Below the pieces are notes generated by a model. The model was not told where the DNA came from. It did no database searches and saw only the letters and a list, made by a program, of their open reading frames with translations. From contig CAZWPX010000011.1 in the NCBI GenBank assembly GCA_964636125.1, positions 18,741-82,740 on the forward strand: a DNA stretch of 64,000 bases, given 5' to 3'. Source of the stretch: an uncultured Desulfobacterales bacterium (GTDB lineage: Bacteria > Desulfobacterota > Desulfobacteria > Desulfobacterales > CAJINA01). Each line of letters begins with the position of its first letter. Within the stretch, counting starts at the first letter, position 1. Shown here piece after piece: positions 45,547 to 55,786 of this stretch. The translations under genes were made by a program, and so were the position numbers.

Positions 45547-46212
45547 ATGTTAAAACTTGGAGAGAAAGGCACTATTCTGCAAAGGGATAAGAAAACCTAT
45601 GCCATTGCACCCCATATTCCCTGCGGTTTGGTGACCCCTGAACTTTTAAGGAAAATTGCAGAAGTTGCCGAGAAATACGATGTCGAATTGATCAAAATCA
45701 CGGGTGCCACCCGGTTTGCGCTGGTCGGTCTCCGGGAAGATAATATTGACAGTGCCTGGCAGGATCTCGGGGTGGATAGAGGTGCTGCCGTGGGGCTGTG
45801 CGTGCGCAGCATTCGTGCTTGTCCGGGTATCCAGTACTGTCGCCTGGCCAAGCAGGATGCCCTCACCATGGGGTTGAAACTTGATGAAATATATCACGGC
45901 ATGGCCCTGCCCAATAAAATGAAAATGGCCGTGTCAGGATGCAACCTGAACTGTTCGGAGTCTGTGGTGCGCGACATTGGCCTGGTGGGTAAAGGTGAGG
46001 GGTGGACATTGCTGATTGGCGGCAATGTGGGGCCCAAGCCGAGAATTGCTGTGGAATTGGCGACGGCGCTTGATGATGCCGCGGCTCTCGCCCTGATTGC
46101 CCGCGTGGTTGTCTTCTACCGGGAAAATGGCAAGAGAGGTGAACGCCTCGGAAAGATGGTGGCGCGTACCGGCATGGCACCGTTCAGGGAACTCGCTGCG
46201 CTGGCACCCTGA
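45547..46212 (+). CDS. Small (221 aa) nitrite/sulfite reductase-like siroheme/4Fe-4S protein (assimilatory-type low-molecular-weight sulfite reductase-like)
   Basis: Cluster-binding spacing is CPGIQYC (C-x5-C) and CNLNC (C-x3-C). The size and the N-terminus KGTILQRDKKTYAIAPHIPCG match small alSir-type proteins as I remember them. Confidence 0.6.
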   Translation: MLKLGEKGTILQRDKKTYAIAPHIPCGLVTPELLRKIAEVAEKYDVELIKITGATRFALVGLREDNIDSAWQDLGVDRGAAVGLCVRSIRACPGIQYCRLAKQDALTMGLKLDEIYHGMALPNKMKMAVSGCNLNCSESVVRDIGLVGKGEGWTLLIGGNVGPKPRIAVELATALDDAAALALIARVVVFYRENGKRGERLGKMVARTGMAPFRELAALAP

Positions 46213-46233
46213 CCGAGGTTGCCAGGTCTTAGT

Positions 46234-46677
46234 TCACTGCCTGGACTGCAGCTGCTCCCTTTCCTTTTCGAGCTCGGCGATCAACTGGCGCAGTGTCCAG
46301 GCCTCTGAAACAGGGGTTAACACTGCCCACAGGGCCTGTTTCATTCCACCGGCCCGGCAGGTGTTCATCAGGTTGTGCAGTTCATTTTCACTGATACCGG
46401 CCACGATAATGGCCCGCGGAAGTTCAGAATCACTACCGCTGCCGGTGTTATCAGGCAGTGTCAGCAGTTGCCCGATTTCATCATCAGCCCTCTCTGCGGG
46501 AGCCCACACAACCGCCACCTCCCCAAGGCCGGCATACGCCATTACCTGGCGGAATTTGTCTTCGTGCATGGCGGCAAAACCACACAGGATCAGCTTGCGG
46601 GGCCCGTAGAGTGGTTTTTCAGAACGGGTTACCTTTTCAAATTTAGCGTCACTCATGCTGTATTCTCCTTTGAACAC
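46234..46677 (-). CDS. Hypothetical protein, possibly DUF3783-like
   Basis: The 147-aa ORF has the family assigned from memory only. It overlaps the 3' end of the frameshifted aldo/keto reductase gene. Confidence 0.35.
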   Translation of the reverse strand: MFKGEYSMSDAKFEKVTRSEKPLYGPRKLILCGFAAMHEDKFRQVMAYAGLGEVAVVWAPAERADDEIGQLLTLPDNTGSGSDSELPRAIIVAGISENELHNLMNTCRAGGMKQALWAVLTPVSEAWTLRQLIAELEKEREQLQSRQ

Positions 46678-47493
46678 TTAAATGCACAAAAAGTTTCATG
46701 AAGTATTCGGGCAAAACCTGCTCCCATGACCTTCGGCGTTCTTGCACCCCGATGGGGACCTGCAGTTCAGTTACAACATCATCCACGTAAGCCGTGCGGC
46801 GCATGCCTAGCAGGACAGCGTTCACACCGGCGGTGGACCGGATGGTGCGGATCGCTTTCTGGCTGAAAGAACCCTTGCCCGCCCAATCCGGATCAGCCGC
46901 TTCCAGGGACCTTTTCAGGGCTGCATTCTGCCGGGCACTGTCGGCTGCGTAGATGGAGGCTACGGCGCCGAACGCCGCTTCAAGGCAGATTTCATGGGCC
47001 CGGATCCAGGCATTGAGATTTTCGTTCTGGCCTCCGTGCTGGGCCAGGTATTCAAAAACACCCCTGACCCGGGGTGAATACAATGTTCAAGGTCGGCACC
47101 GTAGGGCACCCTTTCTTTGAACGGCTGGCCGGCGGTTGTTTTCTGGCGGCTCAAGTCAAGATTCCGACCCTGCAGGTATCCGACTTTGGACACAACCACA
47201 ACTTGCTGCCGCTCAAGCGATCCAGCCTTGAACAGGCCATCTAAAATCTTACCAACCAGTATTTCTGATCCGCCGTCTGCATAATTGGTGCTCGTATCAA
47301 TAAGATTCACACCGCGTGAAAGGGCACGTGTCAGCGCGTTGGCGTGTGCCCGGACCCCGCCACTGACCCGATTGCACCCGAAGCCCGCCTGACTCACGTA
47401 AAGTTTGCGGGGCCCGAGTTCATTGTAGGCGATACTGTTGTTTTGGTTTGCCAGGGCAGCTGTGGCCGACCTGGTGGCAAATCCGTTATGCAT
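46649..47493 (-). pseudogene. Aldo/keto reductase interrupted by a frameshift (1-nt deficit in a C/G homopolymer)
   Basis: Two overlapping ORFs in different frames (46960..47520 and 46649..47083) together make one AKR. The N-terminal half contains LIDTSTNYADGGSEILVGKIL. The C-terminal half contains GVNAVLLGMRRTAYVDDV. The junction is at minus-strand CAC-CCC-GGG (plus 47068..47076). Confidence 0.65.
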
Positions 47494-47585
47494 GGCGTTT
47501 CCTTTGCCACAGACTATCATACGATATTAGAAATATTCAATCTCCTAAATTGGAAATCCCAGCGGGTGCCATATTCGTGAATTAA

Positions 47586-47610
47586 ATATTTCAAAAATAT
47601 GAAACGCTCA
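47586..47610 (+). repeat. Copy B of the 24/25-nt repeated intergenic element (atatttcaaaaatatgaaacgctca)
   Basis: See copy A at 16412..16435. This copy lies between the stop of the 47613..48224 gene and the AKR pseudogene start. Confidence 0.8.
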
Positions 47611-47612
47611 TT

Positions 47613-48224
47613 TTAGGAATCTGAATCGTACCGGCTGCCGGCAAGTCGACCGCACAGGAAAGTGCCCAGGGTATAGATGGCGCGTTCATCAAGGTAGGTT
47701 TCGATTGTGGCCTGCAGCAACAGGCTGCACTGGGCCGGGAATGACGCCTCCGCATCATTGAACAGCAGGTGGATCGGGACGCCGGGCAGGGCTTCAAACC
47801 GGATCAACAGGTCATAGCCTTGCGTGTCCGGCCGCACGATTCCGGAGAGCGCGGCGGCGGCACGCTTGAGTTCATCCGGTTGGCCGGAGAAGGTGCTGGT
47901 AATGGTTTTGTTGGTGTTGTTGGCGAAATTGACCGCCAGGGGGCCCGCCCCGTCCAGCTCTCGATAGGAGACGAAGTGGTTTCCTCGGGGGCTGACCCCG
48001 GGGCGATGAAGTACGTAATCTCGAAGCACCGCTATAATCGGTGGTGTTGGCCGCCGGCCGTCGGGGTCTAATATTTCCGTCCGGGTTATGGTATGGGGAA
48101 CCCCGAAAAAAGGAATGCGGAGTCGGCGGCCATCAAAATCGACGCCTGCCCTATTGGCGGCGGTGGCCAGATCGGCCACGGGCAGGGGCGGGTAGGCCGT
48201 TGCAGCCTGGGCCTGGGCTTTCAC
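47613..48224 (-). CDS. Hypothetical protein, possibly DUF3786-like
   Basis: The 203-aa ORF has a GTG start overlapping the upstream stop (TAGTG). The family is assigned from memory only. Confidence 0.35.
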   Translation of the reverse strand: MKAQAQAATAYPPLPVADLATAANRAGVDFDGRRLRIPFFGVPHTITRTEILDPDGRRPTPPIIAVLRDYVLHRPGVSPRGNHFVSYRELDGAGPLAVNFANNTNKTITSTFSGQPDELKRAAAALSGIVRPDTQGYDLLIRFEALPGVPIHLLFNDAEASFPAQCSLLLQATIETYLDERAIYTLGTFLCGRLAGSRYDSDS

Positions 48225-48872: not shown

Positions 48873-49472
48873 ATGGCACAGACAGCATTGGAAGGAAAAC
48901 CCTTGAACACATCCGGCGACCTGCCGGCAGTCGGTAGCCAGGCACCGGCTTTCACTTTTACCGGAACAGATATGGCAGATATCACCCTGGACGATTTTCC
49001 AGAGAAAAAAGTGGTTCTGAATATCTTTACAAGTATCGATACATCGGTCTGCGCCCTGTCGGTCAAAAGGTTTAATGCCGAGGCTGCCAAGCATACGGAT
49101 ACCAGGGTTATCAACGTTTCCCGGGACCTGCCCTTTGCGCATGCCCGTTTTTGCGGGGCCGAGGGTATTGAAAACGCATTGTCGGCTTCGGTTATGAAAG
49201 ACCTCTCTTTTGGTGATGATTACGGAGTGGCTTTTACTGAAGGGCCTGTCCAGGGGTTGTTCGGGCGGGCAGTGGTGGTGATCGATGAAAATCGCAAAGT
49301 CATCTATGCCCAACTGGCTGCGGAGCATACCGAGGAGCCGGACTACGACAGTGCCCTGGCTGCCCTGACTGCTTCCGGAAATGACATGGACGCCTGTGTG
49401 GTGACACCCACCGCGGAGCACTCACGGGCAGATGGCTTTGATGAACCCTGTGATGACGGCCGTGCGGGCTGA
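48873..49472 (+). CDS. tpx: Thiol peroxidase (Tpx, atypical 2-Cys peroxiredoxin) with a C-terminal extension of about 30 aa
   Basis: The sequence contains GSQAPAFTFTGTD, VLNIFTSIDTSVCALSVKRF, DLPFAHARFCGAEG and RAVVVIDENRKVIY. An AGGAGGA Shine-Dalgarno sequence is present. Confidence 0.85.
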   Translation: MAQTALEGKPLNTSGDLPAVGSQAPAFTFTGTDMADITLDDFPEKKVVLNIFTSIDTSVCALSVKRFNAEAAKHTDTRVINVSRDLPFAHARFCGAEGIENALSASVMKDLSFGDDYGVAFTEGPVQGLFGRAVVVIDENRKVIYAQLAAEHTEEPDYDSALAALTASGNDMDACVVTPTAEHSRADGFDEPCDDGRAG

Positions 49473-49491: not shown

Positions 49492-50880
49492 ATGGGTAAC
49501 AGAATTGAGCGAGATTCTCTCGGGTCGCTGCAGGTGCCCCAGGACGCTTATTTCGGCGCCGGCACCCAGAGAGCGATCGAAAACTTTCCCATCAGCGGGC
49601 AGGTGTTGCCGGGTCGTTTTCTTAAAACCCTGGCTCTTGTCAAGCAGGCTAGCGCCCGGGTCAATGCAGCCCTGGGATTGCTGGCTGGGCCCCTGGCCGA
49701 TGCAATCGAAACTGCCTGTAATGAAGTTATGGCCGGCCGCTTTGAGGACCAGTTCCCGGTGGATGTGTTCCAGACCGGTTCCGGAACGTCCACCAACATG
49801 AATATGAACGAGGTCATTGCCGCCCGGGCCAATGAACTGCTGACAGGTAAAAAAGGCGGGCGCGACCCGGTGCATCCCAATGATCACGTCAATCTGGGGC
49901 AGTCCAGCAATGACGTGATTCCTACGGCGCTGCATGTTTCGGCGGTGATGGCCATTAAAGAAAATCTGGAGCCGGCCCTGGAACAGCTGGCGGTTGCCCT
50001 CTGGGAGCGCGCCGGCGCCTTTGCGGATATTGGCAAGATCGGACGAACGCATCTCCAGGATGCGGTGCCGATAACCCTGGGAGATGAATTTTCAGGCTAT
50101 ACCCACCAGGTGCAAAAAGCGGTTGCCCGGGCTGCCAATGCAACGGCCGAGCTGGCCGAACTGCCCCTGGGCGGCACGGCTGTCGGGAATGGACTGAACA
50201 CCCACCCGGATTTTGCCAATAAAGTTATCGAACGCCTGGCGGTGCAAACCGGTTTTCCCTTTAAGGAAGCCCAGGACCATTTTGAAGCCCAGGGGGCCCG
50301 GGATGCCGCGGTGGCGGCCAGCGGGCTATTAAAAACCATTGCGGTCAGCCTGTCTAAAATTGCAAACGACATTCGCTGGCTGGCTTCAGGTCCCCGCAGT
50401 GGATTGGGAGAGATCCAGCTGCCCGCCATACAACCCGGCTCTTCGATCATGCCGGGCAAGGTCAATCCGGTCATTCCCGAGGCGGTTATTCAGGCAGCCA
50501 CGCAGGTTATCGGCAACGACACGGTTGTCACCCTGGCCGGCCAGGGCGGCTATTTTGAATTAAACGCCATGCTGCCGGTCATGATCTATAACCTGCATCA
50601 CTCTATAGCGCTGCTTTCCTCTGCTGCGGATGTCTTTACACAAAAATGTATCCGTGGTATTCAGGCTGATACTGAAAAATGCCTTGGAACCATTGAGAAC
50701 AGCCTGGCGCTTGCCACCTACCTTGTCCCAGACCTGGGATACGACAAGTCCGCCGATATTGCTCACCGAGCCCATGCGGAAGGTAAAACCATCGAGGCCG
50801 CTGTACGCGCCGAGGGCGCGCTGCCCCCGGAACGGATTGATGCGCTCTTTAAACGATTTCGAAAAAATCAAAATAGATAA
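49492..50880 (+). CDS. fumC: Class II fumarate hydratase (fumarase/aspartase superfamily)
   Basis: QTGSGTSTNMNMNEV, HPNDHVNLGQSSNDV and GRTHLQDAVPITLG are fumarase-like. GSSIMPGKVNPVIPE has an aspartase-like tail, so the substrate call is not certain. Confidence 0.7.
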   Translation: MGNRIERDSLGSLQVPQDAYFGAGTQRAIENFPISGQVLPGRFLKTLALVKQASARVNAALGLLAGPLADAIETACNEVMAGRFEDQFPVDVFQTGSGTSTNMNMNEVIAARANELLTGKKGGRDPVHPNDHVNLGQSSNDVIPTALHVSAVMAIKENLEPALEQLAVALWERAGAFADIGKIGRTHLQDAVPITLGDEFSGYTHQVQKAVARAANATAELAELPLGGTAVGNGLNTHPDFANKVIERLAVQTGFPFKEAQDHFEAQGARDAAVAASGLLKTIAVSLSKIANDIRWLASGPRSGLGEIQLPAIQPGSSIMPGKVNPVIPEAVIQAATQVIGNDTVVTLAGQGGYFELNAMLPVMIYNLHHSIALLSSAADVFTQKCIRGIQADTEKCLGTIENSLALATYLVPDLGYDKSADIAHRAHAEGKTIEAAVRAEGALPPERIDALFKRFRKNQNR

Positions 50881-53319: not shown

Positions 53320-54183
53320 TTATTTTTTGGAAGGCTTCGCCTTGCGCTCCAGTTCTTCTGCAATAAGGCTGATCAGGTTGCCCAATTGATTGCCTTTTAC
53401 TTTTTTCCCGTTGATGAATACCGAGGGGGTGCCCCGGACTCCGATCTGGCGACCATTTTCCACGTCTTCAAGGATCTGGGCCCGGTTCTCGGGCGACTTG
53501 ATATCACCATTGAAACGGGTCATGTCCAGTCCCAGATCTTTGGCAATAGATTGGATTTTCTCATCGTCAATGGCGTTGTGGTTTTTCAGCAGGGCCTTAT
53601 GGAATGGCCAGAATTTTCCCTGGTTGTGGGCGGCCATGGCACCCATGGCGGCATTAAAGGCGAAACGGTGACTGGACAGGGGGAACTGCTTGGCAATCAG
53701 GCGTACGTCGTTTGGATATCGCTCCAGCACCTGCTGGAGAAGCGCTTCGAGTCGCGCGCAATACGGTCACTGGTAGTCATCGAACACCACCAGGGTGACT
53801 TTGGGCTTTTGGGCGCCCGTTGCAGGCCGGTTTGAGATGTTGATTGTATAGACCTGGTCAAACTTGATGACACTGAGTTTGGCCGGATCGGCGGCCGCTA
53901 CAATCAGCTTTTCATCATTGGCGTAGGCGATCCGGGTGAAGCTCCTGTTCACCGGGATCGGTTCCAGAAAGGTATCGGTGTCTGTGGCATAGACCAGGAT
54001 TTCCCCGGGGGTCAGGGTAAAGATCAGCTTTCCATCGAAAGAAGCAGTCACATCTAGGGCCTGGTTTTTAAGCTTCAGTTCGCGCAGATTTTCCCACTCG
54101 ATACCGGCCTGGACAAGCCCGGGCAGCAGCACCAGCGCAATGCACAGCATCAGGAATTGTTTTAAGGTTCGGTGTGTTTTCAA
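53320..54183 (-). CDS. Periplasmic DsbA-family thiol:disulfide oxidoreductase, probable selenoprotein (U-P-Y-C active site; Sec codon TGA at 53767..53769)
   Basis: Two same-frame ORFs in the track are separated only by a TGA. Read-through gives VTLVVFDDYQ-U-PYCARLEALLQQVLERYPNDVRLIAKQFPL. A signal peptide (MKTHRTLKQFLMLCIALVLLPGLVQA) starts from TTG at 54183, with GGAGG 7 nt upstream. The DsbA C-terminus GVRGTPSVFINGK is present. Confidence 0.7.
53722..53739 (-). promoter_or_regulatory. Candidate bacterial SECIS hairpin
   Basis: The minus-strand RNA CUCCAGC-AGGU-GCUGGAG forms a 7-bp stem with a GU-containing tetraloop. It starts 27 nt after the UGA. Confidence 0.45.
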
Positions 54184-54205
54184 TGGATAGCCTCCAATTC
54201 TCTTT

Positions 54206-55786
54206 TTACAGATCCTGTTTGCGAACTTCAACCTTGTTCACAAGGTATTTCTTGACATCACCGATGGGAACCTCCCGGCGGTGAAAAATTCCGGCTGCCA
54301 GGGCGGACTCGGCTGCGGTACGATTGAACACCTCCGCAAAGTGCCTGGCACTCCCGGCACCGCTGGATGCGATCACCGGTATGGTGACGGCATTTTTAAC
54401 AGTGTTGATCAACTCGATATCAAAGCCGGAATTGGTGCCGTCCCTGTCGATGCAATTGAGCAGGATCTCTCCGGCACCCAGTTCTTCACACGCTTTGGCC
54501 AGTGTGACTGCGTCCAGATCGCGGCCTTCGCGTCCGCCTTTGATGGTACACTGATACCAGCAGTATTCTTCACCGGCCGGGCCGGGTTGAGAGGTTTTGA
54601 TCACGGTGTGTTTGACTTCATCCGGAGAGTGGACATAAACCCTGCGCGGATCAACCGAGATGACCACGGCCTGGTTGCCGTATACCCGCGAGATTGCTTC
54701 GATGGCACTCCGGCCTGTTTTCTGGCCGGTTGCAAGGTACGCTTCGGCAATGATAACGGCATCGCTGCCAATGGAAATTTTGTCCGCCCCGGAGCGAAAA
54801 TACGCTGCCGCCACCTCCAGGGATGTGTAGGTTTTGCCGTTGGCATCCGTGTAGTCCCGGATCCCGCCGCCTATGGTAAGGGGCACAAAAACGTTTTTGG
54901 AAGTCTGTTTCAGGACATCGATCATGGGCATGTCTTCAAGCGGAAAATCCCGGAATCCGGTGATGTTTAAAAACGTAATTTCATCCGCCCCTTCCTGGTA
55001 ATACCGCTCAGCCAGTTCAACCGGTTTGCCCAGGTTTCTCACCGAACCCTTCTCACGGACATCATATTGATCGCCTTTGGTCACCACCAGGTCACCGTGG
55101 TCATTGGCGCGCACATCCAGGCAGGCGATAATCCGCTTGGCCAGTTTCGTGCGGGTCTGGATTTCAGGGGGGCGCACTTTATCCCGGTCGATGGCTAAAA
55201 AATTATCGAGCAATTTTTGCCCGGCCCGGCCGCTTTTTTCCGGGTGGAACTGGGTGCCGATGATGCTGCCCTGCTGCACGCTGCTGGCAAATTCAATACC
55301 GTAATCAGTGGTGGTCAGCGTCACTTCCGGATCTTCCGGGGCAATGTAATAGGAATGTACGAAATAAAATTTTTCATCCCCCTGCAACCCGTTAAAAATA
55401 CGGGATGGTTTCCGGGGATTGATTCCGTTCCAGCCAATGTGGGGGACCGCCAGGTCGATGTCGAAGCGTTTTACCGCACCTTTAAAAATGCCCAACCCTC
55501 TGGTTGCCAAGGCCTCAGCACTGTTTTCAAAGAGGGCCTGCATGCCCAGGCAGATGCCGAAAAAGGGGCGACCGCCGGCCAGAAACGCTTTCAGGGGTTC
55601 TACATAGCCCTTCCGGTTCAGGATCTGCATCATATTCCCGAAGGCCCCGACACCCGGGAAGACCAATCTTTCAGCGTTGGCAATTTCGTCACTGCGTCCG
55701 GTGATCTTTACCGTTTCACCCAGGCTTTCAATGGCGTTGATGACACTGCGGACGTTGCCGGCGCCGTAATCAAGTAATGTAATCAT
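54206..55786 (-). CDS. hisHF: Imidazole glycerol phosphate synthase, fused glutaminase-cyclase (HisH-HisF single polypeptide)
   Basis: The N-terminal HisH part contains LLDYGAGNVRSV, FFGICLGMQALF and TQFHPEKS. The C-terminal HisF part contains RIIACLDVR, FVPLTIGGGIRD, VVISVDPRR and IPVIASSGAG. Total length is 526 aa in one frame. Confidence 0.9.
   Translation of the reverse strand: MITLLDYGAGNVRSVINAIESLGETVKITGRSDEIANAERLVFPGVGAFGNMMQILNRKGYVEPLKAFLAGGRPFFGICLGMQALFENSAEALATRGLGIFKGAVKRFDIDLAVPHIGWNGINPRKPSRIFNGLQGDEKFYFVHSYYIAPEDPEVTLTTTDYGIEFASSVQQGSIIGTQFHPEKSGRAGQKLLDNFLAIDRDKVRPPEIQTRTKLAKRIIACLDVRANDHGDLVVTKGDQYDVREKGSVRNLGKPVELAERYYQEGADEITFLNITGFRDFPLEDMPMIDVLKQTSKNVFVPLTIGGGIRDYTDANGKTYTSLEVAAAYFRSGADKISIGSDAVIIAEAYLATGQKTGRSAIEAISRVYGNQAVVISVDPRRVYVHSPDEVKHTVIKTSQPGPAGEEYCWYQCTIKGGREGRDLDAVTLAKACEELGAGEILLNCIDRDGTNSGFDIELINTVKNAVTIPVIASSGAGSARHFAEVFNRTAAESALAAGIFHRREVPIGDVKKYLVNKVEVRKQDL

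Follow-up and report, generated by a model that had tools for sequence, protein, structure and literature searches.

Is a DsbA-like gene that seems to be cut in two by a stop codon really broken, or is the stop codon decoded as selenocysteine (Sec)? This question is raised by a locus in a 64,000-nucleotide stretch of DNA (the window, i.e. the whole sequence that we analyzed) from an uncultured Desulfobacterales bacterium (assembly GCA_964636125.1, contig CAZWPX010000011.1). On the minus strand, two open reading frames (ORFs), 53767..54231 and 53320..53730, share one frame, and the sole interruption between them is a TGA at 53767-53769. An initial annotation, made from the sequence, had described this arrangement and suggested that the TGA occupies the nucleophilic Cys position of a DsbA active-site motif; the coordinates and the translation agree with the former, and the homologs described below agree with the latter. 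We consider it very probable that the locus is one gene for a 287-residue exported DsbA-like thiol-disulfide oxidoreductase, in which the N-terminal active-site Cys is replaced by Sec (U139-P-Y-C142).

Gene structure

The locus has the architecture of a single gene. Its complete coding sequence (CDS) occupies 53320..54183 on the minus strand and consists of 287 codons, including that of Sec139, followed by a TAA stop codon at 53320-53322; 148 codons lie between the UGA and the end of the gene. The start codon is likely the TTG at 54183, which is preceded, across a 7-nt spacer, by the Shine-Dalgarno sequence GGAGG (54191..54195, minus strand, read from the sequence), located 10 nt past the stop codon of the upstream hisHF gene. 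Translation through the TGA gives ...KPKVTLVVFDDYQ-*-PYCARLEALLQQVLERYPNDV...GVRGTPSVFINGK, and the immediate context of the TGA reads ...KVTLVVFDDYQ-[TGA]-PYCARLEALLQQVLERYP...GVRGTPSVFINGK.... The TGA thus falls on the first Cys of the motif F-D-D-Y-Q-[U]-P-Y-C.

Two Logan assemblies that are independent of each other (SRR24302412 and SRR24302413) contain the identical sequence, TGA included. We rejected a sequencing or assembly error as the source of the TGA, because it recurs in both of these assemblies and in at least 119 species genomes. The gene calls of the Logan assemblies cut the gene into products of 138 and 136 amino acids (aa), which is the mis-annotation as two fragments that had been foreseen for this locus.

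Homologs across the TGA codon

A search with the joined protein among 5.8 billion proteins found 441 relatives. The best 120 of these are mostly 270-290 aa long and align over 90-98% of the joined sequence at 40-56% identity; several come from Desulfosarcina genomes. Whether homologs of the 287-aa protein run on as one uninterrupted chain had been put forward as a check of the Sec proposal: more than 100 full-length homologs, with Cys at the active-site position, span the junction and do not end at the TGA. The TGA (53767..53769, minus strand), read as Sec139 in the nucleophile position of the U-P-Y-C motif (53758-53769), aligns with a conserved Cys, which is present in 17 of 18 aligned homologs. 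In the same alignment, D136, Y137, Q138, Y141, C142, R144 and L145 are invariant. The 18th homolog, P0008 (L003:340-1200), shows Trp at the active site; the DNA of its contig has TGA at this position, and the ENA gene caller had used genetic code 4. P0008 is another Sec form, and its Trp is an artefact.

We also scanned one genome per GTDB species for the DNA pattern D-Y-Q-TGA-P-Y-C-x-R-L. It occurs in at least 119 species genomes, as against about 0.5 chance matches, a figure that we estimated from the degeneracy of the pattern. Among the matches listed, 119 of 119 are DsbA-like, with the frame open for 44-195 codons past the TGA (mostly about 140-160); the few short open frames are cut by contig or locus ends. 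The taxa represented in these matches include Desulfosarcina (with the complete genome of D. alkanivorans PL12), Desulfobacula, Geobacteraceae, Nitrospirota, Chloroflexota, Acidobacteriota, Methylomirabilota, Rubrobacteraceae and Thermodesulfobacteriota. In 80 metagenome loci fetched by protein homology, the active-site codon is TGA in 42 and TGY in 31, and the frame of the Sec forms is open on both sides. Among relatives, Sec forms are therefore as common as or commoner than Cys forms at the DNA level, whereas the protein database gave essentially only Cys. Because gene callers end the product at the TGA, Sec forms hardly show up in protein databases.

Compared with three orthologs that carry the same TGA (L111, L123 and L124), the N-terminal half of the protein is 54-59% identical and the C-terminal half 70-71%. 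The closest named relative among these is the Delta4 endosymbiont of Olavius algarvensis (L111), with 59% identity in the N-terminal half and 71% in the C-terminal half. Given that both halves are conserved, this comparison indicates purifying selection on the parts before and after the TGA alike.

These results bear on the possibility that the gene is a pseudogene or a truncated gene, in which the TGA is a true stop, translation yields just a 138-residue product with the signal peptide and the beta domain, and the DsbA half decays. TGA does serve as an ordinary stop elsewhere in the window, gene callers report separate products of 138 and 136 aa, and Sec machinery is undemonstrated for the source genome. 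However, decay would bring stops and frameshifts, whereas the 148 downstream codons are intact and retain the above identity to orthologs with the same TGA. Moreover, the same TGA, followed by an open frame, is found in more than 160 distinct sequences from several phyla, and a hairpin of the type that directs Sec insertion, with compensatory changes, follows it. We consider a pseudogene highly unlikely.

A conserved, probable SECIS hairpin

In bacteria, the hairpin that directs Sec insertion (the selenocysteine insertion sequence, SECIS) has been modelled as a stem of 4-16 bp, with a distance of 16-37 nt from the UGA to the loop, a minimum free energy (MFE) of -7.5 kcal/mol or below, and an apical loop of 3-9 nt in which the first or second nucleotide is G and the next one usually G or U (PMC13188914). 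The hairpin CUCCAGC/GCUGGAG with the loop AGGU, at 53722..53739 on the minus strand, lies within all of these ranges: the loop has the required G, the stem is 7 bp long, the UGA-to-loop spacing is 34 nt and the isolated hairpin has a free energy of -11.8 kcal/mol (z = -2.2 relative to shuffled sequences). Compared with a bSECISearch-type consensus, it is alike in loop, G[G/U], stem, spacing and MFE, with the 34-nt spacing close to the upper limit. It starts 27 nt past the UGA, exactly where the initial annotation had placed a hairpin within SECIS spacing, and it codes for the residues L-Q-Q-V-L-E of helix alpha-1. An Rfam scan of the 64-kb window returned no match and no SECIS family; this result is uninformative for SECIS, since Rfam offers no general model of the bacterial elements.

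Next, we analyzed covariation by aligning 116 distinct Sec-form segments, which required no gaps. Each of the six core pairs can form in 96-99% of the segments, and A38 and U41 of the loop are invariant. Compensatory changes occur at several pairs: 34:45 is CG in 89 segments and GC in 23, 35:44 is AU in 99, GC in 12 and GU in 4, 33:46 is CG in 103 and UA in 7, and 36:43 is GC in 97 and GU in 12. None of 500 shuffles matched the observed scores, and slid registers were only 30-50% paired. Pair 34:45 ties the first nucleotide of a Gln/Glu codon to the third, synonymous one of a Leu codon. Since a Gln/Glu change is thereby coupled to a synonymous site, this covariation reflects selection on the RNA and not on the protein. 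The same 18 nt are thus under a dual constraint, as part of the code for helix alpha-1 and as the SECIS stem, with the synonymous Leu site compensating the Gln/Glu replacement.

The hairpin is also associated with the Sec codon. In a fixed register and with at least 5 bp, it is present in 111 of 118 Sec forms (94%) but in only 6 of 28 Cys forms (21%). When the sequences were clustered at 60% protein identity and the loop G was required as well, the ratio became 22 of 23 for Sec forms versus 2 of 18 for Cys forms (p = 2e-8). Three Cys forms, L150-L152 (CPYCAGLEPLLRQVSE...), retain the complete hairpin, with its 7-bp stem and AGGU loop, where Sec forms have the SECIS, and L153 apparently has the same sequence. 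All four have probably switched from Sec to Cys recently, so that their hairpin would be a fossil SECIS.

A smaller hairpin, GCGC-GACUCGAA-GCGC, lies between the UGA and the SECIS stem (53742..53757, minus strand) in the MFE fold. The equivalent helix is 64% paired in the fixed register, and the analogues in relatives (e.g. CGGC-UUGA-GCCG) vary in register. It may conceivably be an auxiliary or lower-stem structure of the SECIS. In Chloroflexota, other hairpins are found. Chloroflexia loci (L004, L022, L025, L035 and others) have CUGACG-CGGGU-CGUCAG about 22 nt past the UGA, and Dehalococcoidia loci (L011, L018, L042 and L101) have GCGUUUC-CGUGAY-GAAACGC about 10 nt past it. SECIS elements thus appear to have diversified within one protein family, with Chloroflexota subfamilies using other G-containing hairpins nearer to the UGA.

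The position of the hairpin also bears on the possibility that the locus makes two polypeptides, with the N-terminal domain ending at the TGA and the C-terminal part starting at a GTG at 53730. Such a GTG is present at 53728-53730, and the ORF list opens the second ORF there. However, this GTG is itself part of the SECIS stem-loop, and no Shine-Dalgarno sequence precedes it, in line with what had been noted at first for the downstream half. In addition, a product started at this GTG would be without the entire UPYC active site and the first part of helix alpha-1. The codons that separate the TGA from the GTG (PYCARLEALLQQ) belong to the best-conserved ones of the family, and the Cys homologs are all single proteins. 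We regard two separate polypeptides as the least probable of the explanations considered here, to the point of being negligible.

Genetic code and selenocysteine machinery

Of the 44 long ORFs in the window, 14 end in TGA, recQ and tpx among them. There is therefore no genome-wide reassignment of TGA, and on this ground we rejected genetic codes 4 and 25 for the source organism. A related possibility is that the UGA is read through without Sec, either being decoded as Trp or Cys by a near-cognate or suppressor tRNA or under an alternative code. The Trp given at the active site of P0008 in the database would speak for such decoding, but it is a TGA translated with code 4, as described above. 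The 14 long ORFs that end in TGA do so at their expected ends, and the conserved G-containing apical loop at a canonical distance from the UGA is a specific signature of SelB-dependent decoding (PMC13188914). Thus, non-Sec read-through is very improbable.

Several points weigh against the assignment of Sec. The window contains no selC/tRNA(Sec), and indeed no tRNA at all, according to ARAGORN, nor any Rfam match; protein-family scans covering 22 of its ORFs besides the selenoprotein found no selA, selB or selD. Phylogeny is not fully accounted for in the Sec-versus-Cys statistics of the hairpin. The hairpin overlaps the conserved peptide LLQQVLE, so that part of its sequence conservation is at the protein level. 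Finally, selenium incorporation in this subfamily is a prediction from sequence.

Sec use is documented for the Delta4 endosymbiont of Olavius algarvensis, which has 23 selenoproteins, SelD among them (PMC1976440). Given that this symbiont is the closest named relative, the source organism is very likely to be Sec-competent. We also scanned the window for further selenoprotein candidates with an in-frame TGA; among the matches listed, there were just non-coding upstream TGAs or normal stops.

Domain architecture and fold

The protein starts with a Sec-type signal peptide (residues 1-26, MKTHRTLKQFLMLCIALVLLPGLVQA|G; 54106..54183, minus strand), read from the sequence. It has neither a twin-arginine motif nor a lipobox; Leu precedes Cys14, and Cys14 is not conserved. 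Cleavage probably occurs after VQA26, and the alignment shows an equivalent hydrophobic N-terminus in the homologs.

An all-beta domain of about 95 aa follows (residues ~27-120; 53824..54105, minus strand). The signal peptide and this additional N-terminal domain had both been recognized in the initial annotation, and the sequence and AlphaFold models bear them out. A Pfam search with the domain gave no match. AlphaFold models of the domain have a predicted local distance difference test (pLDDT) score of 87-93 with 6-7 strands, and the model of the window sequence has a pLDDT of 87. Foldseek returned only partial matches, to two blades of WD40/YVTN propellers. By tblastn, 129 of the fetched loci have hits to the domain.

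The C-terminal part (residues 120-266; 53386..53826, minus strand) is a thioredoxin-fold domain of the DsbA type that contains a helical insertion. With Cys in place of U in the query, it matches the Pfam families PF13462 (Thioredoxin_4; 95.7 bits, cutoff 23.2, E = 4e-27) and PF01323 (DSBA; 83.7 bits, cutoff 25.6, E = 2e-23). For the fold of the catalytic domain, we relied on an AlphaFold model of P0001, the Cys homolog nearest to the window protein (56% identity); the window protein was modelled for its N-terminal part only. The P0001 model (pLDDT 93, predicted template modelling score 0.83) shows an all-beta N-terminal domain and then a thioredoxin fold with a helical insertion. According to Foldseek, the structural neighbours of its catalytic domain are 3gyk, Wolbachia alpha-DsbA2 (6eez), ScsC (7rgv), Corynebacterium diphtheriae DsbA/TsdA and BdbD (matched entries 3gyk, 6eez, 7rgv, 3eu3 and 4pwo; E = 1e-10 to 1e-12; template modelling scores of 0.6-0.8 on the target). 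U139-P-Y-C142 is located at the start of helix alpha-1 (H129-144 in the P0001 model). In the cis-Pro loop, G-T252-P253, both G251 and P253 are invariant in the family alignment, and T252 is nearly so.

Relation to known selenoprotein and Dsb families

The recoding type itself had been called established, and the literature supports this. 'DsbA-like, UxxC' selenoproteins were first reported from the Sargasso Sea in 2005 by Zhang, Fomenko and Gladyshev (PMC1088965). They were then described in Anaeromyxobacter, Desulfovibrio and Desulfotomaculum (Zhang et al. 2006, PMC1794560), the Olavius Delta1 symbiont has two DsbA-like selenoproteins (PMC1976440), and the family is listed in a 2026 review (PMC13188914). 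The window protein shares with 'DsbA-like protein form 1' (PF01323) the Sec in the first position of UxxC, widespread Cys homologs, a SECIS within the CDS just past the UGA, and occurrence in anaerobic Deltaproteobacteria/Thermodesulfobacteriota. On these sequence features, we assign the locus to the known DsbA-like UxxC selenoprotein family as a new member. Its subfamily is set apart from the published family (e.g. NIP15863.1), by description only, by the extra all-beta domain of about 95 residues at the N-terminus. We did not find the combination of an N-terminal beta domain with a Sec-containing DsbA domain described in the DsbA-like selenoprotein literature cited here.

For this subfamily, every NCBIfam match stays below the cutoff of the model. 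The best match is NF041057 (Rcas_1661 family thioredoxin-like (seleno)lipoprotein), a Roseiflexus-type family that is likewise DsbA-like, is annotated as a selenoprotein and has the D-Y-Q-U-P-Y-C motif. Unlike that family, the window protein has no lipobox, and its N-terminal region and its SECIS hairpin are different. Membership in NF041057 was rejected, as the score of 55.6 bits is below the cutoff of 190 and the lipobox is missing. Roseiflexaceae loci (L014, L048 and L082) were also found by the same DNA pattern scan. As a separate observation, two metagenome-assembled genomes (MAGs) titled 'uncultured Klebsiella sp.' (L059 and L114) hold a Roseiflexaceae-type U-P-Y-C gene whose protein is nearly identical to those of L014, L068 and L074. 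These two bins are probably mislabelled or contaminated.

Through the P0001 model, the catalytic domain is structurally nearest to the ScsC/alpha-DsbA2 group, together with 3gyk, BdbD and TsdA. ScsC (7rgv, 4xvw), Wolbachia alpha-DsbA2 and, by analogy, DsbC/DsbG resemble the window protein in being exported and in having a non-catalytic N-terminal domain followed by a DsbA-like domain. In contrast, they use Cys, and their N-terminal domains are helical or DsbC-type and not propeller-blade-like.

Proposed mechanism and function

We propose the following mechanism. The UGA at 53767-53769 would not be taken as a stop, because the hairpin at 53722-53739 would act as a SECIS and bring the SelB-GTP-Sec-tRNA(Sec) complex to the ribosome; Sec would then be inserted and the 148 further codons translated. 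The signal peptide would route the protein via the Sec translocon into the periplasm. There, the Sec139/Cys142 pair would cycle between the selenol/thiol and selenenylsulfide states and exchange disulfides with substrate proteins, with the cis-Pro loop being used in this exchange.

A selenol is more nucleophilic than a thiol and has a lower pKa, and an Se-S bond is usually less oxidising than an S-S bond. Because of this chemistry, Sec would suit the rapid exchange of an isomerase or reductase better than strong oxidase activity. Such a bias fits both the structural resemblance to ScsC and alpha-DsbA2 and the additional domain at the N-terminus. By analogy with ScsC, DsbC and alpha-DsbA2, the two-blade-like N-terminal domain probably mediates oligomerisation or substrate binding. 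A more specific and rather doubtful idea, again by analogy, is that this domain homo-oligomerises into a full propeller, as two-blade fragments, both natural and designed, are able to do, which would yield a multi-headed periplasmic seleno-disulfide isomerase/reductase like trimeric ScsC. If this speculation is true, then the protein would represent a previously undescribed architectural class of Dsb proteins.

Implications for annotation

The locus leaves the known picture of Sec recoding unaltered, and its main value concerns annotation. Standard gene calling splits the gene, and as NCBIfam matches stay below their cutoffs, the subfamily may be systematically mis-annotated. Given that Sec forms are almost missing from protein databases, surveys at the protein level may understate how far sulfate reducers, Nitrospirota and Chloroflexota use selenium in the redox chemistry of their periplasm.

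Genomic context

Directly upstream on the same strand lies a fused hisH-hisF gene, a single ORF of 526 aa at 54206..55786 (minus strand), which matches TIGR01855 over residues 2-198 and TIGR00735 over residues 215-521. Its stop codon (54206-54208) is separated from the TTG start of the Sec-dsbA gene by a 22-nt gap, the distance on which an initial suggestion of co-transcription had been based. A terminator and promoter scan found no terminator in this gap and otherwise nothing decisive. The order of fused hisHF followed by Sec-dsbA is kept in the Olavius Delta4 endosymbiont, whose HisHF is 84% identical, and in the metagenome contigs L123 and L124, so that the linkage is limited to the closest relatives. 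Judging from this arrangement, the two genes are probably co-transcribed. We also analyzed the neighbourhoods of Cys homologs in Desulfosarcina widdelii and in a Desulfobacteraceae MAG and found no conserved partner such as DsbB, VKOR or DsbD. Since no conserved redox partner lies near the Cys homologs, the context gives no functional clue beyond the hisHF linkage.

Three other regions of the window were noted. At 45547-48224 lies a cluster of small genes for redox-related or unknown proteins, with a 221-aa NIR_SIR 4Fe-4S protein on the plus strand and a DUF3783 protein and a DUF3786 protein on the minus strand; close to it are the thiol peroxidase gene tpx (48873-49472) and a class II fumarase/aspartase gene (49492-50880). 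An aldo/keto reductase gene at 46649-47520 (minus strand) is divided between two frames, with its N-terminal part (PF00248) in the ORF 46960-47520 and its C-terminal part in the ORF 46649-47083. This split is a frameshift (pseudogene or assembly error) and not a TGA recoding. Finally, a giant ORF of more than 2100 aa at ~57655-64000 (plus strand), which runs off the end of the window, contains RHS/YD repeats and DUF6531 and, after them, repeated modules that resemble beta-sandwiches; it looks like a toxin or surface-protein type gene.

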